DNA of 62,180 nt, filler included, from Catajapyx aquilonaris (taxonomy: Eukaryota): the NCBI GenBank assembly GCA_000934665.2. It is 2 parts of 2 records of this genome, joined end to end, with 100 filler letters (N's around TTAATTAATTAA, not from the genome) between each part and the next. Parts side by side here need not be neighbours in the genome. Positions count along the whole stretch, not along the records: positions 31,140 to 62,180 come from JYFJ02004593.1; 1 more part is not named here. One strand, 5' to 3'. Below the pieces are notes generated by a model. The model worked only from the letters and a program-made list of their open reading frames with translations, searched no databases and was not told where the DNA came from. Numbering within the stretch: position 1 is the stretch's first letter; each line of letters starts with the position of its first letter. Shown one piece after another: positions 31,140-61,706 of this stretch. The position numbers were made by a program, and so were the translations under genes.

Positions 31140-31141
31140 AA

Positions 31142-32549: not shown

Positions 32550-32987
32550 TTATTGTCTTCAAAAGGCAAGAGGCCCTCTCAGGCAGGGTGAGTTGATTGT
32601 CCAAAGAGTAACGGAGTAGGGACAGGCATTGCTTACAATTGACCTGTTGACCATATTGTCTTCAAAAGGCAAGAGGCTCTCTCAGGCTGTGCGGTTTGAT
32701 TGTTAACAGCGCAACTGAGCAGTGACAGACCTTGTTTACAATTGACCTCTTGGAGCACGATATGGGGCCATATTATCTTCAAAAGGCAAGAGACCCTATC
32801 ATTCAGGGTGCGTTGATTGTCAACAGCGAAACTGAGATGTGATAGTCCTTGTTTAATATTGAGCATTTGGGCTGCGATATGAGGCCATATTGTCTTGAAA
32901 AGGCAAGGGGCCCTGTCAAACCGGGTGGTTCGAGGTCCTCTTGCCTTTTCAAGACAATATGGCCTCATATCATAGCCAAAATGCTCA

Positions 32988-32991
<4 letters not shown>

Positions 32992-33039
<48 letters not shown>

Positions 33040-33354
33040 CATAATAATAATAATAATAATCATAATCATAATAATAATAATTCATACCCCGTTATCAGCC
33101 ATCGGCTCTTTAGGGGGGCAGTTTGTTTTGCCTGGAACTCTTTGCTTTTCATTTTACTGTGCTGTTTGGGATAGGATAGGGACGGAATGAAGCGGCTGTG
33201 GCCTATTAATTACGGAAGCAACTCCGAAAATTTCCTGGAAGGACCATGGGAAACCACAGAAAACCATGGTCAGAGTTGCCGGACCCGGGATTCGAACCCA
33301 GGACCTCCCGATTAGCAGTCGGACGCCTTATCCACTATGCCAACCTGCTTCGGT
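32992..33354 (-). mobile_element. tRNA-derived SINE family B, full length with (ATT)n tail
   Basis: A-box-like TGGCATAGTGG and B-box GGTTCGAATCCC on - strand; shared body GGTTTTCTGTGGTTT..GGCCACAGCCGCTTC with 46111-46370; ~90-nt (AAT)n tract as tail; TSD AAATGCTCAATAT at 32979-32991 and 33357-33369. Confidence 0.88.
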
Positions 33355-34179
33355 CCAAATGCTCAATATTAAACAAGGACTGGCACTGCTCAGTTATGCT
33401 GTTGACAATTAACCCACGTGCCTGACATGTCCTCTTGCCCGTATCGCACTCCAAGAGGTCAATTGTAAACAAGGACTGTCACTGCTCGGATAAGCTGTTG
33501 ACAATCAAACCACCCTGCCTGAGACGGCCTCTTGCCTTTTGAAGACAATATGGTCCCATATCATAGCCGAACAGGTCAATTGTAAGAAATGACTATCACT
33601 GCCCAGTTACTCTGTTGACAATAATCAAACAAACCTGCCTGACAGGTCCTCTTGCCTTTACAAGACAATATGGCCTGATATCGTAGCCCAAACGATCAAT
33701 TTTAAGCACAGACTGTCACTGCTCAGTTGCGCTGTTAACAATCAAACCACACTTCCTGAGAGATCCTCTTGCCTTTTGAAGACAATATGGCCCCATATCG
33801 TAACCCAACAGGTCAATTGTAAGCAATGACTGTCACTGCTGAGTTACTCTGTGGACAATCAACCCACCCTGCCTGAGAGGGCCTCTTGCATTTTGAAGAC
33901 AATATGGCCCTATACCGTACTCCAAGAAATATTTCTAGAATCAACGTTTGTTATAGACTTTGATATTAATCCTAATGCATCCAAAGGTCATGATTCTGGC
34001 TCCCAAACTACTGGAAACAATTGTCACACTCCTGGCTCACTTTTCTATAGCACATAACACAGTAAAACTGGACTCGGTCAGACGAGCTCGAGTAAGCCGC
34101 ACGTGCCGGACTGGGCTCCGCAATTGAGATCAGTATCGCACAGGAGTGGCCAAATTGGGCACGCAAGTAGGGCATAACC

Positions 34180-35276
34180 ATGGCCTCGAAGGAAGACATA
34201 CAGAAGATGCTGGACGTCCTCAAGGCAGACCTGACGTTAAGTATTATTTTTTATGTGACATTATGATGTTAAATGCGAAGCTGTACAAGACAGTCGAGGC
34301 ACTAGAAGAGAAATGGGCAGCAGTTATGGAAGATATCCAGGTGACAAACCGTTCGATGGCGCAGCAACTCGAAGATGCAGCGGAGCAACTCAACAACATA
34401 CAAGAAGAATACTCCACCGTTGCGGCCAAGCTAGATGACCTGGAGAACAGATCGAGACACAACAACCTGATATTCCACGGGTTCCAGACCAGCCAGGACA
34501 ATTTGACCTGGGAGCAAACTGAAGCGCGACTCAGAGAGCATCTGGAGAAGTATAAGCTTCACGATGACCCCTCTGGAATAGAGTTTCAACGAGTTCATCT
34601 AATGGATCGCCCAAGGGTAGGAGGTCCGGCGATTGCGGCTTTTCTGCGATACAAAGACAAGGAGACAATCCAGTACCGTGGGAAACACCTCAAGGGAACG
34701 GGAGTTTCGGTGAGTGAAGACTTTTCGGAAAGGGTGCGAAATGCTAGGCGAGAGTTGGTGCCGTACATGTACGAGGCAAGGGAGGCTGGGAAGCGGGCAC
34801 ACCTCAAAATGGACCTTCTGGTCGTGAACGGCGTTCGTTACACCATGGACAAAGATGGGTCCAAACCGATACGGGTGATCCAAGAGGACGTTAGGCGCCC
34901 TGGGGGGACCAACGACGAGTTCAAGAAGAGGCCAAGGTCGTCGCCTGCACAGTATCAAGAAGCAAAGAAGCAGAGGAAACCGGGGGTACAGGGCGCAGAC
35001 CGATCGGAAGAGGACGGGGATTGGATGGAGGGAACAGAAACACCTTCGAGTCAACTATATAGGCCAACCATCGTCCTCCCAACAAGCATCGGCCACCCCA
35101 GGACCTACCTCAGTGGGCGCACCAGCTGGTCCGAAATTCGGCCTGCAAAAATTCCAACTCCAGAAGAAGCAGCCCCCTCAGCAAATGTACGCCCCCTCCC
35201 AGAGGGAGGAAGCTACCGACAAGTGAGACAGCGGGCGGGAGAGAGGGGTCAATACAGTCCCCTATATTGTAAGTGA
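34180..35276 (+). pseudogene. LINE ORF1 (L1-ORF1/Transposase_22-like coiled coil + RRM), disrupted near the N-terminus
   Basis: Coiled coil then DDLENRSRHNNLIFHG, IEFQRVH, VSEDFSERVRNARREL, GKRAHLKMDLLVVNGVRY; likely start MASKEDIQKMLDVLKADL at 34180 is put out of frame by an AT-rich ~40-nt stretch at ~34237-34275. Confidence 0.8.
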
Positions 35277-35319
35277 AAGTGCGCCAATTTGTAGTGTAGT
35301 TGTTCCTGAGAGGAGAGAG

Positions 35320-37612
35320 CAGACTTCATTGCCTGGAACATCGCCGGCCTACCTATTCGAGGAGCCATCAGTGTTTGTGAAAGTGATAGTGTCATGGGAA
35401 TCGGTCTAGTGGAAACATGGGCCGTAAATCCGTTTTGTTTACCCAGGAATAACCCTTACGTGCTTTTCCACTCACCTGCGAAAAAGTCGGCGAAGCAAGG
35501 TCGCCCCTCCGGTGGCCTGACACTCCTGTTGAAATCAAGTATGACCCCCAAAGTGATAAAAGTGTCACAGTATTATATTTTTGTTTCACTAACGTTGAGT
35601 TCTCTGGGAAGTCCGTGTGTACTAGGGTTGGTCTATCTCCCACCGTACAAGAGCTTTGGCGCAGTACTGGAAGAAATAAGCGACATAATAGCGCCGTATA
35701 GTTATCAAAACACACCTATAGTTTTAACGGGCGACTTTAATGCTCGATCGGCAGAAATGAACTCTGTAGCCCCTGAATTAGGGCCACTGAACTTGAATTT
35801 AGCTCTCTCAAGAAACTCGATGGACCGAACTTTAAACGCTTGGGGCTCCAAACTATTACAGTTTGCCAACCAATTTTCTCTATCGATACTGAACGACCTA
35901 TCCACAAGTGACTCTCAAGGCCGATACACATACGCAGCAAGGGGAGGTCAGTCCGTTATCGATTATGCCCTGGTGTCAATGAATATACTTGATCTGATTA
36001 CGGACTTTAAAGTGCTAGACATTATGGGTTCGGATCATTTTCTAATAAAAACCACCTTTGTTAAAAACTGTACCGTACCAGACCATTCAGATGAGCATCC
36101 ACTCCCTACAAAATTTATCTTCCGCTTACCGGAGGACAGGGACGACTGGAGGGAAAAGATTAATAATTTTTATGGCGAAAATCAATGGCGCAACTTGGAT
36201 CTAGATACCCAACTAGAAATTTTTCAATTGGAAACTTTTAAAGTAATGAGTTCGTTGAAATTACTGAGAAAGGCTTCCCCCAAAAGCAAAGTTAGAGTCG
36301 TACACAAACCATGGTTCGACACCCAATTGAAAGTACAAAAATCATCCCTGCAGTCACTGGTCATTAAATGGCGACAATCCGCCACAGATTGTGACAGACA
36401 AAAAATGGTGGAAGCAAAATCGATATACATGAACGCGATAAGTGCAAAGAAAAGAAGATATTACAATTACTCCCTCCAAGTTTTGGGGGACGCTGAAATC
36501 ATTTTGCCGAAAACAGAAGGACCCATTTTTACCAGAGCAGAAGTGGCTGGACCATTTGAGTAGCATTTATATGAGTTCGGCAGGACAGGAATCACTCGAA
36601 CTGGAGTTACCGGGGGAAATTTATGTGCAAAGTTTAGATGAGAATATTACACTGTCTGAGCTGCAACTCACAATGGATGCACTCAAGAACGGGAAAGCCG
36701 CAGGGGTAGACTACATCCCAAATGAATTACTTAAAATAGGATCAGAAACCTTAACGAACGTCATTTTAAGTCTGTACAATAGGATCCTACTAAAAAAATA
36801 GATACAGGAGAGATCTCCCCAGCTGGACTGAAATTAGGAACATTCCAATATTTAAAAAAAGCAATAAGGAAGATCCATCAAATTATAGACCTATTTCTCT
36901 GGTAAATGTCATTCTCAAATTGTTGACTGCAATACTCGCCAAGAGAATCACTGCATGGGCGGAGCTCGACAACTTATTCCCATTCACTCAAGCCGGATTT
37001 CGTACAGGGAAATGATGTTCGGATTTAATTTTCGCATTAACAATTCTACAAAACAAGTATGTCTATGGCAAATCATCCAAGCTGTTCGCACTGTTTGCGG
37101 ATTTTTCTAAAGCTTTTGACTCGGTCCCCTTTGATCTGTTATGGCAAAGATTGGCTAAGTTGGGCATGAGTACGAAATTAATGTGCGTGGTGAGAAAGAT
37201 ATACCAAGGAGCCAAGATAGTATCGTCTAACGGGAAGCAAAAAATTCCTATTACGCAAGGGGTCCTTCAAGGAGACTCCCTCAGTCCAGTTTTATTTAAT
37301 TTATACTTATCAGACCTGCAACAACATCTTGATGCACAAGGAGCCCAAGGCGTAAACATAGGGATCCCATCACGCAATATCTCATTCCTTCAATATGCGG
37401 ACGATATTATTTTATTATCAAATCATAAACTATACTTTCAAAAAATGATTACCTCATTGTCCCAATACGTGGCTCTGAGCGGCATGACCATAAATTTAAA
37501 TAAAACGAAAGTTCTCATTTTCCGCAAAGGCGGACCGCTCCCAAAATCCACCGCATTCTATTGGGACTCGGATAAATTGGAAATAGTTAAAGATTATACT
37601 TACCCACCAGAT
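35320..37612 (+). pseudogene. LINE ORF2 (APE endonuclease + reverse transcriptase), frameshifted with stops
   Basis: Endonuclease motifs AWNIAG, LVETW, GRPSGG, VYLPP, TGDFNA, SVIDY, GSDH; frameshifts near 36450-36560 and ~36840, stops at 36799 and ~37013; YADD in 37151-37684. Confidence 0.9.
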
Positions 37613-37814
37613 GTACCAAAAGAAGAGTTTGACTCGATTGTGACAATTGAATCCTTGAATTTAAGAGTAGCCAAATGTCCATAACTGAAATTTTTTTTAC
37701 AACAAAACAATGAGAAACATTGTAAGTGTGATAGTGACAATTATTTTAAAATTTGGAATACCTTTTTTTGCTTATAAAGGTAGGCTTCCATATAGAGTTC
37801 TGTGCTTAAAAAGT

Positions 37815-37896
37815 CCAAACTTCTCTAACTCGAATCTTCTATAACTCGAAGTTTTTTTCCGGTCCCATGGAGATTCGACTTATAGAAGTTTTACTG
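37815..37896 (-). mobile_element. pogo/Tigger-like DNA transposon end
   Basis: Reverse complement starts TA|CAGTAAAACTTCTATAAGTCGAA with repeated TTCGAGTTA(T/G)AGAAG subterminal motifs; partner TIR not found. Confidence 0.6.
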
Positions 37897-38884
37897 TATC
37901 TCAAATGTTTTGAAATAACTGTTATTCCATGGAATGAACGGACCTCATCACCTGACAGAAATTTCTAGAGTCAACGTTTGTTCTGGACCCTAATGCATCC
38001 GAAGGGCATTCTTCAGGATCCCAAACTCCTGGCAATAATAAACTTAGTAAATAATATTAATATTTTAACAAAATTATCGTTCTTGAACAAGATGCGACTC
38101 AAAAAATTGGCCAGATGTCATCAACTAGTGTCTGAAAAATTAAAATTTCTGCAGCTTTTTAGTGCTTGCTGTGGCCATTTCAAGTGCAAAAAATTTGCAA
38201 ATTCTCGACGTTTGAGTCCAGGTTTTCACTAGTTTTGATCTAATATTATGAGGAACAACGTCCAATAAAAATTATTGCACTTAACTGCTAAATTAATCCT
38301 GGAAATTTTCAACCACTGTAGATTATAATACTGCATGAGGGTCAGGTACTTCTATTTTTCCCTTGTTTTGTGACCTCATATAGAGTAAGTGCCAACTTTT
38401 CCTCATTTTAAACTACAAGTTTTGAAATTCATTAATTCTTGCTTTGAAAATGGTAAGTTTTTGGAGAATCACCCGTACATTTTACAATAGACTGGAAACA
38501 AGTTCTCATATCACTTACCGTGTAATATTCCTATCTGTGCAACTCTGCTTTATTCGAAAATAGCTGAAACAAAATGAAGAAAAAGGATATTTACAGTATA
38601 AACAAGAACTACATTATTATGTTCCATTCATAGATAATGATGTCTACGGAGAATATCCAACAGTTCATTTTTTTTAAATAATCGCAAACACACTGTCAAT
38701 TCGCATATGTAAAACCAGGCAGTTCTGTACTTCTTTGAGAATGCAGATTTGTTCATGACAATGTACAGCATCAGTCAATGGTTCAGTGAAAACAAGATTA
38801 GTATCAGTGAAATATTCAAGAAGCCAATTTAAGTCATGAAGCTTTAAAGCAGCAACTGTTCACAACATATATTTGGGTTAAAAC

Positions 38885-39373
38885 TAAAGCCCGGATTTTT
38901 AGGCACAAAAATACCCTTAAATACGCACGAAAAACGCTCAAATAGGCACAGAAATTTATATGGAGGATAATGTTAGAAAAAATCACAAGCTACAAATTAC
39001 CAAATTATTTTCTAGATTTTCATTAGTGCAACATTAGTGTAAGTACTTCTGAACGATTTTGGTCCCTTTTCAGAGGCACAAAAAATACTCCGAAAAAAAC
39101 ATGCCTCTGAAGGAATAGGACCAGTATAATCCCGAAATTGCTTCAAAAAGTTCAAAAACTATCCAAAAAAGGCCAAATAGGTATGAAAAGTCTCAAAAAG
39201 CCAGAATAGGCCAAATACAGTAGTTTCCAAAACCACGACTTAGGCCTTTTTATGCACTATGAAACCTACATTTTCCACAGGTCCTTATGAAACGGATATC
39301 GTATCTCTTCACAAAACCACCCCAAATGTAAAGGGTTTAAATTAATAGGCATTTGCCTAAAATACGGGCTTTA
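38885..39373. mobile_element. Non-autonomous element with (sub)terminal inverted repeats and 3' hairpin (Helentron/Helitron2-like)
   Basis: TAAAGCCCGGATTTTTAGGCA (38885-) inverted with TGCCTAAAATACGGGCTTTA (-39373); overlapping hairpin TAGGCA-TT-TGCCTA; A-rich interior; no clear TSD. Confidence 0.6.
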
Positions 39374-39694
39374 CTAATAACTTATACCAAGAGCTAATAC
39401 CAATGAGTATATAAAAGCAGCATGGTGTCAATATCATACTTACCCAAAACAACACAAAACTTGTATTAAAATATGAGTTTATTTTATGCAAATTACAGTT
39501 TTACAGTGATGGCCATAACACTAATATTCTGCATTTATTTTAGAATGCTTGTTTCAGTTGTTTGTGAAACCAATATGGAAATAAAGCACAATAAGGATCT
39601 ACTATCATGCTCACATTATAATAACACCTCGCCAGCTTTCTTCACATTAAGGGAGATTTTATTATACTGTTCAGAGTTAGAACTGTGTTTCACA

Positions 39695-42600
39695 CTATAA
39701 TAGACTAAACGATGACCCTCCAGTTTTTTTCTTCTTGCTTCCACCTGTGTCCCCGTTTTTTTTCCCTGAAATGTCGATAACGAATGAACTTGAACCTTTT
39801 GACTTTCCATCTAAAATGATCCCTGCACCTCGACCTCCTCCTTCGCTTGAGGTACCACCTCCTAGACCACTTTTGAGGCCCTTTGATCTGCTACTTTTTC
39901 CCTCTAGATTTAGATCCAGATTACCTCGGCCTCCAGAAGACTCACCTTGACCAGTAATGCTAATTGAACCAGATCCAACCTTATGATTTCCACCCAGACC
40001 TAAACCTCCTTCGTCGCTTGAGCTACCACCTACTAGACCAATTTTGAGGCCCTTTGACCTGCTTCTTTTACCCTCTAGATTTAGATCCAGAGTACCTCCA
40101 CTTCCGAACGACGGGGTATTTTGAGATATGTCTATGTTAATTGAACCCGATCCCATTGATTTTTCACCGTAATTGACTCCCTGTCCTTCGCTTGTACCGC
40201 GACCTTCTAAACCAATTATGAATCCATTGGGCCTTCCCCCTTCAAGATTCGAATCTAGAAATCCTTCAGTTACAGAAGAGTCTCGTTCTGCAGAAATGTC
40301 GGTATTTAGCGAACTTCCACTGCTCATTAATTGTCCATCTAAATTAGGGCCTAGGCCTCCTTCCGATTCAGTCATTGATCCTCCAAATGCAAAGTTGAAT
40401 TGCCCTTTCCCTCCGACAGCATCCTTGTTAGTTAATTCAAGATTTGCACCACCTTCATCACCAGAACTACCAATTTGGCCCCCCTTTGACCTTTCAAAAT
40501 TTCGATCCAAATTGGAACTGTCTCTTTCCCCGGTAATATCGAAAGTAAATGAGCTTGAACCAGTATTTGACATTCCATCCAAATTATGATCCAGACGCCC
40601 TCCTTGACGAGTATTCCCAGTTAATCCTCCTAAATCAATTGTCATTATTCCACCATTTCCTTGTGCTCCTGAATCTTGGTTGAGATCTAACATGGTGTCG
40701 TCGCTTCCAGTTAAACCGTAAGAATATTTACTTGAACTATCGCCACTCAGGTAGGCTTCATAATTCGGATCTAATGAGCCTGCCATATTCCCGTCATTGA
40801 CCATCGTCAGTGTTTTGTCTCCTGTTGACTGTGCCAGATCCATGTTGATATCCATCTTTCTCCCATCACCTCCCCCTTCAATAGTAAATGAATAGCTTTT
40901 GGAGCCACTAACTTGCTCAGGTTGAGAATCCTTCAGGTTAAGGTCAAATGAGCTCTGTCCGTATGAGTCCCTTGGATTTCCTTCTGCGGCAAATGTCAGT
41001 GAACCATCCACTGACTCCTTCGAATCCATGTCAGGATCTAGCTGACTTCCGTCATCGATAGTGAACGAATAGCTTTTTGAACTCGGAATAGTTTCAGGCT
41101 GAGAAACCTCCCAGTGAGTATCAAATGATCCTCCTCCATAGGACTTGCTAATACTTCTATCAATGTCCAGCGAACCACTTCCTCCGGACTCTGTAGGAGC
41201 TATGTTGAAATCTAACCAATCTCCAGCAGCACTTCCATCATCAATGTTGCTGGAATAAGTTCCTGAGCTGCCCATACTTGATGGACGCTGACCCAAGTTG
41301 AAAGCCAGTGAGTCAGAATCAAGTGAGCTGTCCTCATTTCCGTCTGCGGTTATAAACAGGGATCCGTCTTCTGCTGACTTTGCAGACCCCATGTTGAAAC
41401 TCGACGTATCTCCACCCGAAATACTAAGAGAGTATGCTCCTGAACTGCGAGCCATTCCTGACTGGAGATCATCCAAGTTAAGATCTAAAGAGCCAGTGTT
41501 ATATGAATCACCTTCATTCCCGTCTTGGGAAATAGTCATTGATCCATCTCCTGTTGACTGGGCAGAATCCATGTTGATATCCGACATATCTCCACCCGAC
41601 ATGCTGAGAGAGTATGCTCCTGAAGTGCGAGCCATCCCCGATTGGAGATCATCCACGTTAAGCGCTAAAGAGCCAGTGTTATATGAATCACCTCCATTCC
41701 CGTCTGGAGAAATAGTCATTGATCCATCTCCTGCTGACATCACAGAACCCACGTGGTGGCCATATGAATCTCCACCATCACCAGCAATGTTAAAGGAGTA
41801 AGCTCCAGAACTGCTAGCCGCGCCAGACTGGAGATCACTCAAGTTAATATCCCGTGAGCCTCCATCATGTGAGGCGGCTGCATTTCCGTCGAAGATTATT
41901 GACATCGATCCATCTCCTGCTGACATCACAGAACCCATGTTCTGGCCATATGAATCTCCACCATCACCAGCAATGTTAAAGGAGTAAGCTCCAGAACTGC
42001 TAGCCGCGCCAGACTGGAGATCACTCAAGTTAATATCCCGTGAGCCTCCATCATGTGAGGCGGCTGCATTTCCGTCGAAGATTATTGACATCGATCCACC
42101 TCCTGCAGACTTGGCAGAGCCTCCATTGAGGAAGCCCAAGGAATCTCCGTCATTCCCACCAGACATGCTGAAGGAGTATGATCCTGAACTTGTTTGTTGT
42201 TTACCCAAGTTCATATTCGGTGAGCCGCTATCTTGTGAGTTGACACCACTTCGGCTAACGGTAATCGACATTGCACTATTTCCTACTGACTTTGCTGATC
42301 CCATGTTTAGACCTAAGGCACCCCCATCATCTGCATCGGCACCAATGCTGAGGCCGATACTTGATGGTCTTCTCTGTAATTTGTTTCCGAACAATCCACC
42401 TAGGGTAGAAAAGTCACCGAAAGCATAATTAATTAATGGACAAAATGGCTCTTACGAGGGGCGTTAGGAAAGTCGTTACACTTTATTTATTTTTGCCACG
42501 AATGCAGGGCCCATGTAGGTCAGCAGATAGGCACACATTATCGATAGAACCTTCCTGCTGGAGCCGAATGCACCGGTGTTATGGTGCGTCGACCTCTCCA

Positions 42601-44645
42601 GGCCCTCCAGGAACCACCTTTTGGTGGTGAGGCGCACCAACACCCGGACAACTGCTTATAGTAAACAACTGTCAACAAATGGCCTCGAAATTGTGTCGAC
42701 GAACGTTTTTTTTTCATGGGTACAACTTTGGGTGCTTCCACACTCTCCATTCTCCTCCGGCCTGGCCCCCGGTGACTTTCACCTGTTCAAATCCATGGAA
42801 AAAAACCCTTCGCCGACACCATTTCGAGGACATTGTTGATTACAAACAGTTGTCCGGGTGTGAGTGCGCAGCATCACCAAAAAGTGGTTCCTAGATGGCC
42901 TGGAGAGGCTGGCACACCATGACACAAGGCCAGCTACTGGCCAGCCAAGCGGGAGGTCCGGGGTTCAAATTCCGTCCGCATCAGGCAGTCACCTTCGCTT
43001 GGTAGGGTCTTTTTCCGCTTTTCACCTACATGTCCGGGCAGAATTGCACTCCCTTCTCTGCCCATGGCCAATAGAAAAGCTCTGGTATATTTAAGAGGGT
43101 CAGAAATGACTACTTAAGAACGCCCTCCCTTGGGACCCCCCCCCCCCCAGAGGGCCCCTGGCCCTATCACGGGGTACTACAAACAAACAAGCAAACAAAC
43201 AAAGTCACTGGAGGCCAGGCCAGGGCAGTACGACGGGTGTGGAAGCACTCAAAGCAAGATCCATGGAAAAATCCCTTCGCCGACGCCATTTTAAGGACAT
43301 GGTTTATAGTTGCTGACTGAACAGTTGTCTGGTAGTAGGTGCGTCGCACCTCCAAAAAGTGGTTCATGGGGGACCTGGGGAGGTGGCCACACCCATGACT
43401 CCTGTGCATTCAGCTCCGGGAGGTTTCTGTCGATAGTGTGTGCCTATTTGTCGACCTGCATGGGGGTCTTTGTATTTTTGGCAAAATAAATAAATTGTAA
43501 ATCATTTTGGTACGGCCCTCGTATTAAAATCTCAATAACAGTCCTACATTTATGGTGTGTAAACTTTCACCAAACTCTCATAATATTTCTCATTCGCCCA
43601 TTGCTCATGCAATCATACCTGATCATTTCGTATTACAGTAAGAGCCGATGAATAATAACTTGTTATTAATTAGCAAAAGTCACTGGAACATTGACCTTAT
43701 TATCTCCTGAGGCAAATGGAAACAGAGTTGACTCAGGATATAACAGACTTCAAAAAACTCAGAAACTCGGAAAAAGGCTTTCAACTCCGACATCGGAAAA
43801 GTGTCTCAATTTTCCCAAGTTCCTCGAGATATTCTTGAAATTAATCATTACAATCTTCAATCTGCAACCAATCATTCCTCGAAATTAGTCAAATATGACT
43901 CTGATAGTTCAGCGTTTCAGGTCTATGAGTAATTAATTGTTCTTATTCAGGTTATGTCCCTATATATCTATGATGCCTACCATTACTTTTAATCAACTCA
44001 AAAGGAAAATAATTGCCTGTATTTACATAGTAGATGATATAGTTGACAAAGTCATGGGTAATGGTTTAATGTCAAGATACCGGTCGCTTTTATACCCCAC
44101 CACATTAGGGCATTTTCATAGAAGATGTGATACTCACCTAAACCACTGTGCTTGCTTGAAGAACCTTTTCGTCCCTTTCCTGAAAATAATGGCAATTACT
44201 AGCTACTTGAATTTTCATGTTAAATAAAGTAGTCATTTACCTTTGCGAGATGGTCCTTTTGTTTAAAAAAACAGAGAAATAAAATAAAATAAATATTCAA
44301 CCGTTAATAACACTAATTCAATATTTTAAGTTATTTACTTTCCGGCTTACCCAATGCTCTCTGGTTCTGTTCCTCTGCAACAAATAAAACAGGGAGAAGT
44401 CATATTATGTCCTGAGTACAATGACTCGCATGCGTAACTCACCGCTAGACTTGTTATCATTCGAGCTTTTCTCTGCAACCCATAAAAACAAAAACAATAT
44501 TATGGCCATTTGATTTTAAAAGGAGGGAAAATATGGACTTACCCCCTGAAGGATCTGCATAGGCGACACACAGGAAAATTAATAAAATATATAAAATATA
44601 TAATTTGGCAGGCAGGGAGAAATTTCTTTTCTTCCAGCACAACAT
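39695..44645 (-). CDS. Secreted Gly/Ser/Asp-rich repetitive structural protein, ~958 aa, 5 coding exons
   Basis: Exons 44645-44543 (MLCWKKRNFSLPAKLYILYILLIFLCVAYA-DPSG, signal-peptide-like), 44472-44443, 44374-44351, 44255-44241 and 42399-39695. All have GT-AG sites with pyrimidine tracts, all introns are phase 1, and the joined CDS is 2877 nt and open. The terminal exon is a 2.7-kb uninterrupted ORF with ~60-62-aa repeats; AATAAA lies downstream (~39538 and ~39483). Extra micro-exons in the 1.8-kb intron cannot be excluded. Confidence 0.88.
42455..43521. mobile_element. Mariner-derived fold-back element (~325-bp imperfect inverted arms) in intron 4 of the Gly/Ser/Asp gene
   Basis: TA|CGAGGGGCGT ... 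ACGGCCCTCG|TA termini; arms 42455-~42780 and ~43200-43521 are inverse copies; remnant HSPFSSGLAPGDFHLFKSMEK resembles the mariner HPPYSPDLAPSDFHLF motif. Confidence 0.85.
42945..43203 (+). mobile_element. 5'-degenerate tRNA-derived SINE (family C) nested in the mariner fold-back
   Basis: GGGAGGTCCGGGGTTCAAATTCC B-box-like head; ends ACGGGGTACTA followed by (CAAA)n tail. Confidence 0.55.
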
Positions 44646-45329
44646 TTTCGAGTCAGACTGGGACGCTGGAGACTAGGAGTATTGCCATATTACACAAGGG
44701 TGTCTAGACAATAGGCACTTTGTTTTGTGACTTAGTATAGACGCAGGTAATTCAGACACAATAGTTGATGTCATTATTAGCGATTCATTTCAAATGTAAA
44801 AATATCGTTACAATAGTTGTATGCGTGCCTCATGCGCCTTACCCTTTTTCTGAGTTATCTGAGTAGAAACAATATTTCAGGCCTTACACAATGGCGTTAC
44901 CTCTCAAATGACGACATATTATTAGGTTTAGGTGATAAAGGGTTCATATCACTGATGCAGGAGCAAGGACAGGACTCTTGGCCCACTCGTCCAGTATGAC
45001 AGCAACAAATTCCGGTTCATGACTAACCATATACAGTACTGTATATTATCATAATTATATATGGGTTTGCACATTGTCGATTGAACATGCTCCAGTATGG
45101 AAATTATTACAATACAGGGTATATCCTTATACATAACAATGACAAAGTTTGTTGGTATTGTGTATGATTGTATATGTCACGCCTATTTATTTTTTATTAA
45201 TTTTTAAATGTCCATTTCTGAGGAAAAAAAATCAAACCTTTTGACGCTACCTTTAATTCGAAATGTTGATTTTTTTTACAAACATGAGTCCTACTCTCTG
45301 AAAGGGTGTTAAAATAGCTTCCCATTACA

Positions 45330-45651
45330 CTTTTTTTTTAAGTAATCCGGGGTAGTGCTTGACCTCATCTGAGGTATGCAGCACGAACCTTTATTTATTA
45401 TGTCAAGTACATTGGAGCCTTTATACGTAACGCCCGGGCCCACGGGCAGGATGACAGGAGGGGATGTGCAAGGTGCAATGCAATGTCTTATCCGTGGGCA
45501 TTTTTAGTGAACTCCTCCGGGTGGTTTAGTCTGTGGAAATACCACCCGAGACGAAGCCAGAGGTGACCCTGAACTCTGCACGAGATGAAGGGGGTGTCCC
45601 CGGGTTGGGATCGAACCCGGGTTACCGCAGCACCACTCCGCCTCCCCATCA
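45330..45651 (-). mobile_element. tRNA-derived SINE family A, full length
   Basis: A/B boxes on - strand (with a deletion between them), poly-A tail (T run 45331-45339), TSD TCCCATTACA at 45320-45329 and 45652-45661. Confidence 0.85.
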
Positions 45652-46110
45652 TCCCATTACATTAATTACATTTCGGATGTCACAATTTTCCGACGTTATG
45701 GCCTCCCATCTGATGGCGGATGGAGACAAAATCCGCAAAAATCCGCACTTTTCGCACCCTGTAGTTATGCAACCACGCGACGCAGGGACAAAAAAAATGA
45801 GGTTCCTGCTCACACCCATGTGTACTACAACATACCCAGTTTTGGTGGAAATCTGTCGGGGAGGGGCGGTCCAGTTGACGTGGAATGCCTCATACACCGG
45901 TACCGGTATATCATTATAAACTAAATCTTCAAAATTAAATTCGTGTATGTGTAGACGTTAATATATTGTTGACATAGATATCTATTGCCATACATTTTAT
46001 TCTCTTCTGATCCGTCACGCATATTGTGTTTAGTATATCCAAGCCTGGTATTTAAATTATTAATTAACACGAATTTTTGTTAATTATAAGTTTTAATATG
46101 CAAAATATGC

Positions 46111-46370
46111 ACTGAGGCAGGTTGGTGTGGTGGTTAAGGAGTCCAACTGCTGATCGGGAGGTCCTGCTGGGTTCGAATCCCGGGGCCAGCGATCCTGACC
46201 GTGGTTTTCTGTGGTTTTCCACGGTCACCCCCAAGATAATTCCGGGGTAGCTTCCACATAATAGGCCACAGCCGCTTCCATCCTTCCCTACATCCTGACC
46301 CCCATCCAATGGTGGTATTCCACCCCCCTAATGGAGCGCCGATTCTCCCAATGGGGTATAAATAAATAAA
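46111..46370 (+). mobile_element. tRNA-derived SINE family B, full length
   Basis: TGGTGTGGTGG A-box, GGTTCGAATCCC B-box, (TAAA)n tail; 17-bp TSD TAATATGCAAAATATGC at 46094-46110 and 46371-46387. Confidence 0.92.
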
Positions 46371-49300
46371 TAATATGCAAAATATGCTAGATCAATGTCC
46401 AATTATTAATGACTCTTGGAAACGATTGTCTTTTTTTATTGGTGGACAAGTGACTTGGTCGTTTAGTAAATGGATGGTTGTTATGTATAAATCAAAGTTT
46501 ATATTGAGGAGTTCGGAAGGCTTGGATCACGTCCACCAGACTTTCTCCATCAGTAGAAGTGCAATATCATGGATAAGAAGAATATGCCTCGTCCCTATCG
46601 CACAGTCCCCCGCCCCTTTGGCGTCGGGAACCACGACAGACCGAAAGGCTCAGTCTGCTTCGTTAAATCATTGTTTTGGAGACGCTCCGGGGATGTAGTG
46701 CAAGGTATTGGTTCTGTCTCTTCTATAACCCTACCATGAACTTCTGGATTCAAGTGAGGATAAAGACTGTAATGATACCGTACCCTCAATATTGACGCAT
46801 TCTAAAATTACGGACATATTGTTAATTGCATTATATTGTTGGTTGACAATTATTGGCAACCTACAAAACAATACAATAATTACCTACCGGTCCAGACTTT
46901 TGAGTCACTCTGCACAATCATGCCAAAACTTACAGAACTACTGTAGCTCATGTTTGCCAAAATGCAAGTGATGTTGCGTGAAGGGAATGCTGGAGGGGAC
47001 AATGTTGCTATCAGTCCTCACTTTCTCTGAAATTAAAACTCGGCAATTCAAGGCTTTGTTCCTTTTTTCAGAACTCGCAAAAAACAAGAAGAAACTAATT
47101 CACCTTGAAGATGGATATCGTCAATGGCTGCCACAAGCGAAGCATGCTTCTGGAACTTTCTATGTTAGAAGGAAGTACCGTGTTCTGATAGGCCACAGAT
47201 TTTATCTAAGGAAGCAGACATACCCTCTGAAAACGTTGGACAAAGCCCATTCAGACACTGACGCATATGACGCCCAATATATCACATTTCGCAACAGTAA
47301 GTATGTCCTTACAGTGTAATTGCAACTTGCAAGGACTGGAAATATTCGACGTGACTTTTTAATTATCCGTGTCACAAGTTGGGGAGTCAGAAACCCAATA
47401 CCGGTATATCTTCACACACAAATATAATCCTTAAACATGCAGATACAGGATGTGTCAATTCAAATGTCCATAATTATCAATATTTAGACACTAAGCTGCT
47501 TATTTTAGGCAGTGACTTTTGAACAGTTACTTTGAATGGTTAAAAGTATTACTCAATAATATTAGGTTGACCGGGTTCATTCTTACCTGAAATCATATGA
47601 CTAATAATTGTCACGTGGGACTTGGGGTGTGTGAAGGAAGGGGGGGGGGGGTGNGCGGTGGTGTTGGTGGTGGGGGTTGGGAGCGGGCATGGATTTTCTT
47701 AGGAATAATTGGGAAGGTGGAACGGAAAAAGGGTGAGGGATGAGGGGGTGAAGGGGTTGAGGTGGGCATCTGACTGATTCAGGAGGAGGAGGGGGGGGGG
47801 TTGTACTGTTGCTGCTTATTCTTTGGTTGCTGGCGTCGTTAGCCGTCGCTGGCGTTGTCGAGCATCTCTTACTTCGGGCATCGTCGGCGTCGCCGGGCGT
47901 CGCGTCGTAGGGGGTCAACAGGCGTCCTCCTCGTCATCAGGCGTCTTCTTAGACCACGACGCGACGCTTAACGGTGAAGGAGGCTTAATCCTCTGTGCCA
48001 CTAGGATAGCTATCCTCAGTCGCTCCGGTGTCTGTACGTATACCATTACACAGGCGTAGCACATCGCACTTGTCTTGTATCCAGGTTTTTCTCAGGAGCA
48101 AAATTAAGCTGTTTTTCTGGCCTCTCGATAATGACTTGCAAAATTCATGGACCTATGTGTCCCGCACGAGCGTTCCATCTACCGAACTGTACTCACTTTT
48201 TGATGCTTAATCGACCCCTGCATGCCATTGTGCGTTACGATCGCAATTAACATAGATATAAAAACGGGGCCTTATTGGGAGCTGGGCCTAATTTAGTGCA
48301 GGTACTTATTACAACATATCTTATTCTCCGTTGCTATAAGAAATAATAATGTTGTGGAAATTGTGCGTGTAATGTAAGGTTTTAAAAACTCAGGAGCGGT
48401 CTGTGGGATAATAACAGCTCTTTTCCACAACAGGACAGTACTGATAGAATTGATTACTTTTATCCTAGGGGAAGATGCTAGAGATATAATGCGTTTACAC
48501 GACATTATGAAACTGGGAAAGAGGAGGACACTGACGCTAATGTCTCAGAAACTCCCAGTTGCAGAGGACAAGAACGATGAATACGTGAACCGACTGGAGA
48601 AAGGTGAGGAATTCAAATGATCTTAATTTTATCAGTGTGGGGTTTTTCGAGTTTAATTTTTGGTATTCTCGTCATCGAGTCTTGAGTATGTATGAATAAG
48701 CCCTACAAGTTGTGTTTGTGTGCGTTATTTAGTTATATTAATACTAATTTCCGTTTGAGAGGGAGGGGGCAGTTGCATCATCAATCAGATTACATTATTA
48801 CAGTATGTAAGAGTACTGGTTATCTCAAAAATGCGTACAATTTGGCATCCCAGCAATGTAATGTACAGTATAGAAGAGATTAAGTAAATCAGAATGGTTT
48901 ATTACGAACTTTAATAATTTCATGACCATTCATAAGAGAAAGTGAGGTACTGTGCGTTACTGAACTACTGTGAACGAAAAAAGTCACGGAAGAGAAGGTA
49001 AGAACGTCAATCTGTTTCGTTTGTACATGCAATATAATGAGTGACCTCGTTGATGTTTTCAGCAGTAATAGGTTCATAAGTCAATGCATTGCATTAGCAA
49101 TAATAACACAGGCCAAAAAAAAAAAATCTGTTGCATGAGATTTTTCAACTGATTCTAAGATTTTTTTCAACTCTGATTTCAAATCTGAAATCGGCTTTCC
49201 TCTCCAAGCTCCAGTTTTCATGCAATAATTTGAAACTTGTGATTTTCGCAATAAAGGACACCCCTTGCTATTTACATTAGGGTTAGCTTGAGAATTAGGC

Positions 49301-50688: not shown

Positions 50689-51266
50689 CTTTTTATTTAC
50701 GTATCCCATATTAGTTCATGTGTACATAAGAACAAAATGATATGGTTAGAGAATTAATTATTCTAGAAATACACACTTCCGAATAATTGGGCTTCTTGTC
50801 CGGTCATGAATGATGACCTGACGGAATTTTCTAGTTCACTTTCGGGAAACTACTAATGTGCTGAATCTTGCAACTTATTGAAGACTAGATTAAACTAGAC
50901 GGTCAAAATAATTAGTTTTGCAGCTGAAAAATATGCGCTGCAAGTCTGTGCTTTGACAGGCATGGTTGGGCAGATAAGGAGTGGACATTGTTGGTATTTT
51001 TCCACATAGTCAGAGGGACCATGCAGTCAAGACGATATGAGTTATTTTCGACTAATAATAATAACCTAGGATCTTATTCTTACTGGATAGCAACTAAAAG
51101 CAACATTTTTGCAAGCAGTGCTCCTTGTTAGACCACGATATTTTGTGATACAGTCTAACAAAAGGTCTCGTAGGAATAATCAAATGTATTTTACAATGAA
51201 TCAATTACATGAAACAGGTTGTCTTTAGTGACTAATGATAGTATTACTGTATTTTTATTGTTGCAG

Positions 51267-53932
51267 TGACTACAGAAATTCAAGCAAGGAGAAGTCTTTT
51301 TGGAAGGGGGGATTTTCGCACCATTAGCAAGCGTTATAATTGCACCGTCGAAGACTTTTACGAAGTCTGGCGAACACTGGAAGAAAAGATACAGGACCTT
51401 GAAAATGAACTTGGAGACTGCAGAGACAAAGTATATGGCGGAGATACCAGAGTTGTGTGTCAATTTTACTCTATACCGGATATCTACGCGGTACTACCTG
51501 ATAATGACTATGATCCAGACTTTTTAAAGTCTAAGACCGAGGTTGTTTTGACTGAGAAAAGTGATATTATCGTTAATTTTGTAAAACGAACTACACGAAT
51601 TATTCAAACTGTAGCGATGAACTTGAAGTTTCCCGAACCTCCAAAACCAACCTGCTCTGATAGTAAACACAGCATTCTTTACGCCGGGGACAGCAAAACT
51701 ACAGATAAAAAAGTTACTACTGTTCTAATGCCCACAATTTGGATTCCGGAGGACAGCGAAGCGGCAGCTGAATTGGTGAGAAAGGACTATTACGAAGGAG
51801 ACAAGAATGAAATTTTTCCTGGCTGTCCTAAGACTTTCGATAGGGAGGATATAGAACGGATCGCAGATTCAGACGATGAAGACAGAAAGGGAAAACCATA
51901 TACGGAAATGGTGAAGCGTCAGCAGGAAAAAGTAGGCACTCTTCTCATGATAAATCAGACATTAAGGGAGAGGCTGATTATCGACGAGAGAAAGCATCGA
52001 GTTGGGGATGCAGACTTGGAAGGTATTAGTCGTCCAAAGGAAAAGGAAGATTCCCCTCAAGAAAAAGATGAGATAGTCACATGGAATAATCCAATCGAAA
52101 TCTGGATGAACCCTCCTCCAATGGTTACTTCCATAGGATTGTACACACCTTCAACAAAACTGTTCCAAGAAGAGGTAGCGTTGAATATGCCTCATAGAAA
52201 GAACACTCGCCTGAGAGAGAGAATAGCATCATTGGCTAAACGTTTTGGGGCCACTAGAAAAACCAGGACTGCACGTCTCAATGCTATCTACAGAAAATCC
52301 TGGATGGAAGTATATGTTTACCGTAATGTTCCAAGAAAAGGTAAGAAAGCCTTCAAAGCTGTGACCTGGCCATCGCGACCTAGCCGTGACCAAAAGAAAT
52401 CAACCTCGTTTGGTGATAGTAAATGCCCAGATCTGCAATTAGCCACAGCCTCGAAGCATGATAACAATCAGACGCCCCAAGAAACGTCACACCCTACGAA
52501 TGAGAATGAGATAGCGTCTCCCACCGAACTATTACGTGGGGACAGCGAACTAGACGCAACCACCATCACAAATCCCATACTGATCTCTCAGACAGTAGGC
52601 CTAAGTAAAGGATTCCAGGAGCCTTCCGGAATCTTGTCGATTCCCGTAATAGATAATGTAATCCTCTCAGAATCTAATCAAGAAATCCTCGAAAACATAT
52701 TTACTCTTCCTGGAAAAAATAACAAGCCTAAAACTGAGGAAGTATTGATTGGAACTCATGGAATGTTGAAGCTATTTAGGAGGTGTGAGGAATATAACAA
52801 GGCGATATTAAGTGAAGAGGTGGTTGAAAAGCAGCCTTACGATTGGGTCTCCGAAACAATAAAATTATTGACACATGGTCAAGCGGTACCCATGAGAGGT
52901 TGCCGGAAAGCAAAAGAGTCAGTGATAGTACCACATGAGGTGAATTCGACCACTCAGGTCAAAGACATCCTGAAACCGATAATCGTAAAGAGAGCCACAA
53001 CAAGAGCATTAAAACAAGGTTCAAGGAGAAATATGCCTGGCAAGTTCGATCGGGCCACTAAAGTCTTCGAAACCAGGAAATCGACGATCGTAACTAGTGG
53101 AACGATACAGCCACCTACGCAGATTAAGGAAACTGACAAGCTGCCAGCCAAACCCTTAAAAAATTTGGATCAGTGTATAAAACCGCCCAATAAGATACCG
53201 TATAATGTGAAGTCGACCACTAAGAATAAGGATATCAAGAACTCCTTCGTCTTAACTAGCAGTACCACACCTGGGAAGTGTGAGGCATCTTCCAAGTTGC
53301 CAGAAAAACAGGTTGCAAAGGAAAAGTATCCTGCCAAGGCCGAATGGGCCTCCACACTAATAAGTCTGTATCAGGATACAAAAATGTCCCAGAAAGACTT
53401 GTGTAATGTGAAGTGGATCACTGAGATCGAAGAAAAAGAGGGTCAGTTCAAAGTAGCTAGAACCACTCAAGTATATGCGAAGAGTGAGGCATCTGGCAAG
53501 TTGCCAGCAAAACAAGTTGCAAATGAAAAGCCCAAATGGGGCTCCAACTTACAAATAAATTTGGATCGGAGCACAAAGAAGGTACCAGTACCGTCTGATG
53601 TGAAGTCGACCGCTAAGATTGAAGTCGTAGCTAAGAGAACCACACAGGCACCTGAGAAGTATGAGGCATCTGACATTTTGCCAGCTAATGAAGTTGCAAA
53701 GGAAAAGCAGCCTGACAAGCCCAAAAGCTCCGAATCACAAATAGATTTGGATGTGGATAAAACGGAGGTACCGTCTAATGTGAAGTCGACCGCTTATGAT
53801 GTAAGGAAGAACCCGTTCATCGTAACAAAGAGAATCACACAGGAACCTATGGAGATTGAAAGAATTAGCCAGTTGGCAACAAAACAAACCACGCCGTCAG
53901 GTAGCTTGGACAAGAAAGAGAAATCGCCCTAG
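51267..53932 (+). CDS. Large terminal exon of an unknown Lys/Thr/Glu/Pro-rich protein (>=888 aa) with four C-terminal 60-67-aa repeats
   Basis: 2.67-kb open frame that begins exactly at a strong acceptor (TTTTTATTGTTGCAG|, phase 1); repeats anchored on (N/D)VK(S/W)(T/I)... EAS..LP..QVA.EK at 53204, 53405, 53597, 53777; no recognisable domain; upstream exons not resolved. Confidence 0.75.
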
Positions 53933-60659: not shown

Positions 60660-61706
60660 AAGTCAACCATTTGGCTTCAAGTGGACTATTGAGAATAATA
60701 TAAAGCGGTAGAAGCGGAGAGCAAAAGTATATCCCAACAATTTACTTCTGGTGGAAGCGAAACAAGGAAGTGGATAGGATGACACTTCATCCCAAAGGCA
60801 ATGGTCAGGAATCTAGCGGTTTTCTCTCACTCTTCTTCTGCTACCGTCCTATTCCAACTGGTGATGCGCTAACAGCATCATGCAAGTACTCTATTAAGAG
60901 TGCCACCAACAACGACTACTCAAAAGGTCCAATGTCCATGTGTACAGCAGGGAAAATATGTCTCTTTCTTGGGGTGTAGGCTACCTAAATTTATTTCTGT
61001 CGAAGAGTTGGCAAGGAGGTCAGATGACCTTCTTCCTAATGGTACCCTGACTGTGGTTTGTGAGCTGGAGATCATGTTGGAGAGAAAATCTGAGGAGGTG
61101 AAAGAGAAAGTTGAGGTTCATGGCCCTGAATTATCTGAAGACGTGCAGCAATATTTGAAGTCACAGAAGACCGATGTAACGTTGGTGGTTAATGGGTCAG
61201 GGTTTGAAGTGCACAAGTTTATTATGTGTGCTCGTAGCCCAGTATTTGCAGCCGAGACTGAGGAAAAAATGACAGGAGAGGTGATGATCAAGGACTTCAG
61301 TCCTGAAGTGGTGCGAGGCCTCATACACTTCATGTACTATGATCAAACTCCAGAAAACATGACTGATAAAACAGCTATGGATCTGTTGGAAGCTGCTGAT
61401 AAGTATCAGATTCTTCGGCTGAAGTCTTTGTGCCAGGTTCATCTCATAAGCCGTGTAACTGTAGAAACCGTACTTGATATTCTGACTGTGGCCATGATGC
61501 ATGATTCGCCAGTACTGAAGGAAGCATGTGTGAGGTTTGTCAAAGCCAACGTGAACGCGGTTAAGGGGTCCGAGGCTTGGAAACAGTGTACTAATGTTGA
61601 AGTAGTGAAACTCCTTTTTACACGCTTTATATTAGTTTCACTTTGTCCGTGTGTGTGTGTGTTTGTCCACCCCTCTCTTCGCCATTGCCCCACCATCTAT
61701 CGGTAG
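60660..61706 (+). pseudogene. Intronless MATH-BTB (SPOP/Roadkill/TDPOZ-like) gene with frameshifted MATH domain and open BTB-BACK region
   Basis: MATH motifs split over frames (FKWTIEN then stop at 60709; LHPKGNGQESSGFLSLF; SWG; KFISVEEL..LLPNGTLTVVCE). BTB motifs are in one frame: DVTLVV..FEVHKFIMCARSPVFAA..IKDFSPEVVRGLIHFMY..DLLEAADKYQILRLKSLC..LKEACVRFV..SEAWK. The last ~30 codons come from the adjacent repeat. Confidence 0.85.

Follow-up and report, generated by a model that had tools for sequence, protein, structure and literature searches.

Arthropod-type secreted low-complexity repeat proteins are a known class. The cross-beta silks of lacewing egg stalks, MalXB1/2 of Mallada signata and ChryC1-3 of Chrysoperla carnea, are documented to self-assemble into beta-rich material (available portion of PMC5485732), and the Gly/Ser-rich cement proteins (GSrCPs) of barnacles, among them the cp19k-like Aa19 family and Aa43, form nanofibrils (as given in the accessible text of PMC5099703). 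Acidic shell and skeletal matrix proteins with an isoelectric point (pI) near 4, such as scallop MSP-1, aspein and prismalin-14, are likewise a recognised class (excerpt of PMC6003135). Here we describe a gene on the minus strand, at positions 39,695 to 44,645, of a 62,180-nucleotide (nt) stretch of DNA from Catajapyx aquilonaris (assembly GCA_000934665.2). This whole stretch, called the window below, consists of two parts of two records joined by 100 filler letters, and positions 31,140 to 62,180 come from JYFJ02004593.1. Judged by its sequence, the gene appears to be taxonomically restricted and to encode a strongly acidic, Cys-free, Gly/Ser/Asp-rich protein with a mass of about 93 kDa and about fourteen strand-and-loop repeats of 60 residues. 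We tentatively read the product as a secreted material or matrix protein whose charge would keep it in solution and which, on neutralisation, would assemble through beta pairing. Because sequence membership tests failed for each system compared, we would place it as a new sequence family within the known class and not as a new kind of system.

The repeats are the most distinctive feature of the protein. Ten modules of 55-63 residues span residues 89-690, in agreement with the original prediction of about ten units of about 60-62 residues. A hidden Markov model (HMM) built from six obvious modules recovered ten units over residues 89-685 together with weaker C-terminal matches, and iterating it gave 15 segments with scores that are not independent, since the iterated model was self-trained. 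Each module contains four short segments of 4-6 residues, in which hydrophobic and polar residues alternate, amid loops of Gly, Ser, Asp and Asn. Compared with 500 shuffles, the hydrophobic autocorrelation stands out at lag 2 (z = 6.1), lag 60 (z = 4.6) and lag 62 (z = 3.5), the dominant periods being 2 and 60-62 residues. The modules that had been proposed to follow toward the C terminus are related in part: the C-terminal units align with the first half of the module, that is, its first two strand segments (hhalign probability 82%, 30 columns), but the block at residues 691-805 can barely be aligned with it (probability 1.2%).

The composition of the chain is equally biased, and here the original description, a chain free of Cys and dominated by Gly, Ser, Asp and Asn, held throughout. 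In the 928-residue mature chain of the five-exon model described below, to which all composition figures refer, there is no Cys after residue 30, and Ser (18.9%), Gly (18.8%), Asp (9.3%) and Asn (6.3%) together account for 53% of residues (Ser, Gly and Asp for 47%, Gly and Ser for 38%), with Leu at 7.3% and Ala at 5.2%. The mature chain has a mass of 93 kDa, a calculated pI of 4.29 and a grand average of hydropathy (GRAVY) of -0.59. Its charge is unevenly distributed. In modules 2-10 the net charge per module lies between -4 and -9, against +1, +1 and +6 in the last three units; the last 2.5 C-terminal units are basic, and the chain ends in a Lys-rich tail. Possible Ca2+ sites include 13 DG[NS] and 10 D-x-[DN]-x-[DG] motifs. 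The calcium-binding beta-roll of RTX proteins (tandem nonapeptides GGxGxDxUx) was considered and rejected, with no GG.G.D match in the chain and no HemolysinCabind match in Pfam.

Comparison with the described systems shows resemblance of type without relation in sequence. The lacewing silks and this protein have a Ser/Gly-rich, highly repetitive core in common, the lacewing proteins being secreted and ours predicted to be (available portion of PMC5485732). According to the same portion, the strand-turn period of lacewing silk is a strict 16 residues; the present protein has four segments per 60-62 residues, bulky hydrophobic residues in its strands and a weakly regular period near 15-17; lacewing cores are Ala-rich and positively charged with a C-terminal Cys/Asp motif, in contrast to the acidic, Ala-poor and Cys-free chain found here. 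Membership in the MalXB/ChryC group was rejected, as neither phmmer nor a word-indexed search returned a match and composition, charge and Cys motif all differ. The barnacle GSrCPs are also secreted and lineage-restricted, with repeated blocks in which low-complexity Gly/Ser-rich stretches alternate with complex or charged ones, but their blocks, as far as the accessible text of PMC5099703 describes them, are about 100-170 residues long and rich in Gly, Ala, Ser and Thr, with basic Arg/Lys-rich spacers, unlike 60-residue Asp-rich modules with four hydrophobic strands. Membership in GSrCPs or cp19k was rejected too, there being no sequence match, an Asp-rich composition, and strands and loops that interleave on a scale of about 15 residues.

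The acidic matrix proteins raise a different possibility, namely that the gene encodes a soluble acidic Ca2+- or mineral-binding protein, whose Asp/Ser/Gly loops would act on the nucleation or growth of calcium carbonate and not in beta self-assembly. Scallop MSP-1 has a modular make-up dominated by Ser, Gly and Asp. More generally, the members of this class are secreted, as our protein is predicted to be, and resemble it in being modular or tandem in structure and dominated by Ser, Gly and Asp, with a pI near 4 and some basic segments (excerpt of PMC6003135). The pI and Ser/Gly/Asp content given above, together with 19 S-x-D sites, 7 S-x-E sites and the 13 DG[NS] motifs, favour such a role. 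However, Asp makes up only 9.3% of the chain and forms no runs, whereas the described proteins are molluscan, much richer in Asp, free of regular amphipathic strands and without sequence relation to this one; neither phmmer nor the word-indexed search returned homology to a matrix protein. Moreover, the positions conserved among the modules are hydrophobic strand residues together with Ser, Gly and Tyr, and not acidic residues. Taken together, we regard a mineral-binding function as rather unlikely.

The pattern of constraint within the modules also bears on whether the repeats do anything beyond filling space. Aligned modules share 21-92% pairwise identity. Modules 2 and 3 are 92% identical and modules 4 and 5 are 75% identical, and the DNA contains tandem units of 186 nt (97% identical) and 180 nt (87% identical), so that these two pairs look like recent duplications. 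In 43 of 45 module pairs the ratio of nonsynonymous to synonymous divergence (dN/dS) lies between 0.20 and 0.74, the remaining two pairs being saturated at synonymous sites, and dS exceeds 1 for most pairs; thus, apart from the two recent pairs, the repeats are old and constrained. Module position Ser45 is invariant, and Ser7, Ser29, Asn33, Tyr48 and Ser49 nearly so. A secreted, intrinsically disordered protein whose role is not structural but hydrating, lubricating, salivary, seminal or mucus-like, and in which the repeats are only spacers or modification sites, would account for the low AlphaFold2 confidence described below, the negative GRAVY and the high Gly and Ser content. Yet a pure spacer would have no need of the conserved hydrophobic alternation at lag 2, which points to strands, nor of Tyr and Ser positions held invariant or nearly so despite saturated synonymous divergence, and with only 4 N-glycosylation sequons and little Thr or Pro the chain is not mucin-like. 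Such a non-structural role seems unlikely to us.

The large exon carries three long open frames on its antisense strand (40173-42428, plus strand; 138, 169 and 146 codons); these most likely result from a codon make-up poor in stops and are not genes.

Searches for relatives bear out the original claim that the protein is an orphan, as far as the tools reach. With the whole protein, Pfam gave no family at E values (expectation values) up to 1, and the ten single modules searched at E up to 10 gave only two chance-level matches, each with one module of the ten. A word-indexed search of 5.8 billion clusters found no relatives among 8,000 scored candidates, and phmmer found no match among 1,835,955,588 representatives, a library that did not return the query's species and from which close relatives may be absent. 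PDB sequences, queried with both the protein and the module profile, yielded nothing, and the ESM Atlas yielded no usable match. Within the window, tblastn detected no paralogues (best non-self match E = 0.09), and Rfam detected nothing in 37000-47000. A literature search, made by protein class and not by the text of the module motif, turned up analogues, with this module undescribed among them.

The ten-module profile, for which no family had been recognised, did produce a single match among longer proteins, the Caulobacter autotransporter P0002 with 12 He_PIG Ig-like domains (E = 2e-6). It is on this match that one could base the view that the protein is a folded tandem array of small beta domains, degenerate Ig/PKD-like or beta-solenoid, serving extracellular binding or adhesion and not forming bulk material. 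The score of 45.5 bits clearly exceeds that of 20 column-shuffled profiles (at most 3.5 bits). However, it adds up from eleven matches, each worth 3-12 bits, which all fall at profile positions 38-59 and recur on one and the same short stretch of the He_PIG repeats. What is shared is a motif of about 21-22 residues of the type S-G-x-x-x-x-x-G-x-Y-S-F-x-I-x-x-x-D. The He_PIG unit has 87-96 residues against 60 here, and only the hairpin aligns (hhalign, 21 columns, probability 52%). In Pfam, at E up to 10, no module of the ten matches He_PIG (PF05345) or an Ig family, and four strands in 60 residues leave too little room for an Ig fold, which has seven. Homology to He_PIG was rejected on the short alignment, the low score per repeat and the missing Pfam match over about 96 positions, and the likeness is a shared hairpin-like motif, not evidence of common descent.

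Fold prediction does not add a domain to this picture. AlphaFold2 run without an alignment on the 900-residue product of the large exon gave a mean predicted local distance difference test score (pLDDT) of 37.6, with 38 strands and no helix; when two modules were modelled from seven aligned rows of paralogous modules, the pLDDT was 43.5, with strands and two short helices. In both models the strands fall on the hydrophobic segments. At this low confidence the models show strand propensity; they speak neither for nor against a beta-solenoid or a cross-beta stack, and they show no discrete domains. With no confident fold obtained, we consider an array of binding domains improbable.

Whether the repeats belong to a secreted protein depends on the gene model (Table 1), for which the original prediction had joined a signal-peptide exon through three micro-exons to the large exon. 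An open frame of 918 codons runs across 39695-42451 on the minus strand, and its 2,705 bases from the acceptor at 42399 onward translate into 900 residues. Because there is no Met among the 17 open codons that separate this acceptor from the stop before it, the large exon needs an upstream start. The acceptor itself is strong, with a polypyrimidine tract and TAG. About 2.1 kb upstream lies the ATG at 44645, the first past an in-frame stop, and the five-exon join from there is 2,877 nt long and encodes 958 residues without an internal stop, with GT..AG borders and phase 1 at every junction. Start codon, signal exon and splice chain are thus all present in the DNA as predicted.

The micro-exons are the less settled part of the model. 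A frame-independent scan of 42380-44760 for strong splice sites, both donors and acceptors, revealed an additional candidate exon of 42 nt between the 15-nt exon and the large exon, encoding 14 basic, Gly/Ser/Lys-rich residues, with splice sites stronger than those of the 15-nt exon, which appears to be the least certain exon of the model. This candidate and the alternative donor of micro-exon 3 are proposed additions to the earlier model: the borders and phase of its three micro-exons fit, but it overlooked both features and included an exon with a weak acceptor. Five splice combinations were compared (the five-exon model; the same with the 42-nt exon; with the 42-nt exon and the alternative donor; without the 15-nt exon; and exon 1 joined directly to the large exon), and since all five are open, the frame cannot choose among them. 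Every micro-exon candidate adjoining the signal exon is in frame and open, compared with 81 of 372 arbitrary AG..GT segments of 12-60 nt in the intron region (22%) and with none of 14 strong-site candidates downstream of 44138. The in-frame cluster beside the signal exon would thus be more than chance.

The N terminus encoded by exon 1 looks like a textbook signal peptide. Judged by rule from the sequence, residues 1-30 have the classical features: a basic n-region (K5, K6, R7, K14), a hydrophobic core of 13-16 residues at about residues 15-27 (11-residue Kyte-Doolittle means reaching 3.35), and an A-x-A site (A-Y-A) before D31 that places small residues at -3 and -1, with cleavage predicted after residue 30. 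Together with the frame-consistent splicing, this suggests that the protein is probably secreted, and in these respects the secretion claimed earlier finds support, although no RNA junction between the signal exon and the large exon was seen.

Transcription was assessed by comparing 39000-45200 with one public run (X1), available as contigs only and of a kind not on record. An exact contig of 1,693 nt covers 39511-41203, the 3' half of the large exon, at a depth of 23.1, and an exact contig of 230 nt covers 41327-41556 at a depth of 2.2. There are 44 further pieces, two of them with at least 99% likeness, and the pieces listed lie in the large intron and match imperfectly, which fits repeats. 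That intron holds multi-copy repeats or transposon remnants at 42519-43139, where listed X1 pieces are 90-95% alike and summed depths reach 68; frames on both of its strands look like decayed transposase fragments, and the one frame scanned in Pfam had no match. Depth is zero on 41691-42311 and 43761-45200. Because the contigs total only 31.8 Mb, and because a single-copy stretch at depth 23 lies beside uncovered unique intron DNA, the contents of X1 fit RNA and not genomic DNA. The end of the long contig, at 39511, lies 184 nt beyond the stop codon and 23 nt beyond AATAAA, as expected of a poly(A) site, and the gene looks transcribed and polyadenylated.

The same run yields no joint at the proposed junctions (44543/44472, 44443/44374, 44351/44255 and 44241/42399), and it leaves the large exon bare over 1.2 kb at its 5' side, as well as exons 1-4. 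Its cover bears out the 3' part of the predicted transcript and is neutral as to the exons and junctions further 5'. The missing 5' cover can be explained by the near-identical tandem units (97% and 87%) and by a depth that falls toward the 5' side. It could also mean that the signal exon is foreign to the transcript, or that the locus is a decaying or non-functional repeat frame that yields no secreted protein, as the fall in depth from 23 to 2.2 toward the 5' side would allow. Against this stand the length of the open frame, the dN/dS below 1 between old repeats, a strong acceptor without an in-frame Met upstream, micro-exon candidates near the signal exon that are all in frame and open against the 22% background, and the exact contig end resembling a poly(A) site. 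We therefore find a foreign signal exon or a decaying locus very improbable, and are highly confident that the gene is real and probably transcribed.

We return to the reading of the product as a secreted matrix or material protein, which is suggested because amphipathic strands in acidic loops, the lack of Cys, and an acidic body with a basic tail fit together. In the layout envisaged, a signal peptide would be followed by a short charged linker encoded by the phase-1 micro-exons, then by the ten acidic modules and by a more basic, Lys-tailed C-terminal set. In the secretory cell the chain would stay in solution, for the most part unfolded, through charge repulsion and its loops. Once it is secreted, Ca2+, pH or basic partners, its own tail among them, might neutralise the acidic loops, whereupon the amphipathic strands could join up as beta sheets, both inside one chain and from chain to chain. 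The product would be a component of an extracellular matrix, gel or fibre, such as cuticle, an egg covering, glue or a mineral-associated matrix. Both the beta assembly and its trigger are inferred.

Several observations weigh against this reading. The spacing of about 15 residues originally proposed for the four segments is weakly periodic (z = 2.7, 2.3 and 2.4 at lags 15, 16 and 17), although their alternation stood. No residue in either AlphaFold2 model reaches a pLDDT of 70, so that plain disorder fits equally well, and the proposed junctions have no joint in X1. The searches yielded no homologue that could inform function, and orphan low-complexity secreted proteins can serve many other roles. 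A more specific version of the material reading holds that the four-strand 60-residue module founds an undescribed family of charge-gated beta-assembling proteins, in which the acidic array would stay unfolded until Ca2+ or its own Lys-rich C-terminal modules neutralise it and would then form a cross-beta or solenoid-like fibre or film, by a design that has no disulfides and differs from those of silk fibroins, lacewing silk and barnacle cement. This version is quite unlikely in our estimation.

Table 1. Features of the predicted gene, with positions counted along the window
Feature	Position	Strand	Remarks
Exon 1: start codon (44645-44643), predicted signal peptide (residues 1-30) and 4 residues	44543..44645	-	103 nt; donor GG|gtaagt, phase 1
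Micro-exon 2, 30 nt, phase 1-1	44443..44472	-	acceptor ...gggttgcag, donor CG|gtgagt; sequence-based
Micro-exon 3, 24 nt, phase 1-1	44351..44374	-	in-frame alternative donor at 44339 gives 36 nt
Micro-exon 4, 15 nt, phase 1-1	44241..44255	-	strong donor AAG|gtaaat, weak A-rich acceptor
Additional candidate micro-exon, 42 nt, phase 1-1, open	44138..44179	-	acceptor ttattttcag, donor TAG|gtgagt
Large intron with multi-copy repeat or transposon remnants	42400..44137	-	
Large coding exon: 901 codons including the split first codon, and TAG stop at 39695-39697	39695..42399	-	
Ten acidic modules of about 60 residues (protein residues 89-690)	40502..42307	-	
Divergent middle block and C-terminal modules (residues 691-958)	39698..40501	-	
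Probable 3' untranslated region; AATAAA at 39534-39539	39511..39694	-	exact X1 contig end at 39511

The surroundings of the gene are eukaryotic in character, with a retrotransposon of the long interspersed nuclear element (LINE) type, GT..AG introns and a BTB/SPOP-like exon. The LINE-type element (34128-37684, plus strand) is broken into several frames, among them a 382-residue frame resembling the first open reading frame (ORF1) of such elements, an endonuclease frame (Exo_endo_phos_2, E = 1.9e-12) and a reverse-transcriptase frame (RVT_1, E = 2.5e-25). An exon at 60873-61706 (plus strand) encodes BTB (PF00651, E = 6e-23) and SPOP-type BACK (PF24570, E = 6e-8) domains; its best match is a mite protein at 36% identity in a comparison restricted to proteins longer than 416 residues, which excluded SPOP relatives of normal length. 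On the opposite strand, 6.6 kb upstream of the gene, an open frame of 896 codons (51242-53932, plus strand) is rich in Lys, Glu, Thr and Pro, has no Pfam family (Pox_A_type_inc, E = 0.057, falls below the cut-off) and may be a second orphan gene. A 152-codon frame at 32633-33091 (minus strand) begins with a long run of Tyr and Asp and is a TA-rich simple repeat, not a gene.

For annotation, the locus illustrates how a signal exon and three to four micro-exons of 15-42 nt, lying 1.8-2.2 kb upstream of the large exon, would escape calling based on open reading frames, as the original prediction had noted of the secretion signal. On present evidence, the gene is one more lineage-restricted secreted low-complexity gene. 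Such genes are common in arthropod genomes and usually remain without an assigned function until data on tissues or proteomes come in. Should the protein assemble, it would represent a new, sequence-unrelated design among the few arthropod beta-sheet materials, characterised by a compact four-strand module, the absence of cysteine, and an acidic body combined with a basic tail. Such a design would be easy to produce recombinantly and could be tested for Ca2+- or pH-switched assembly.

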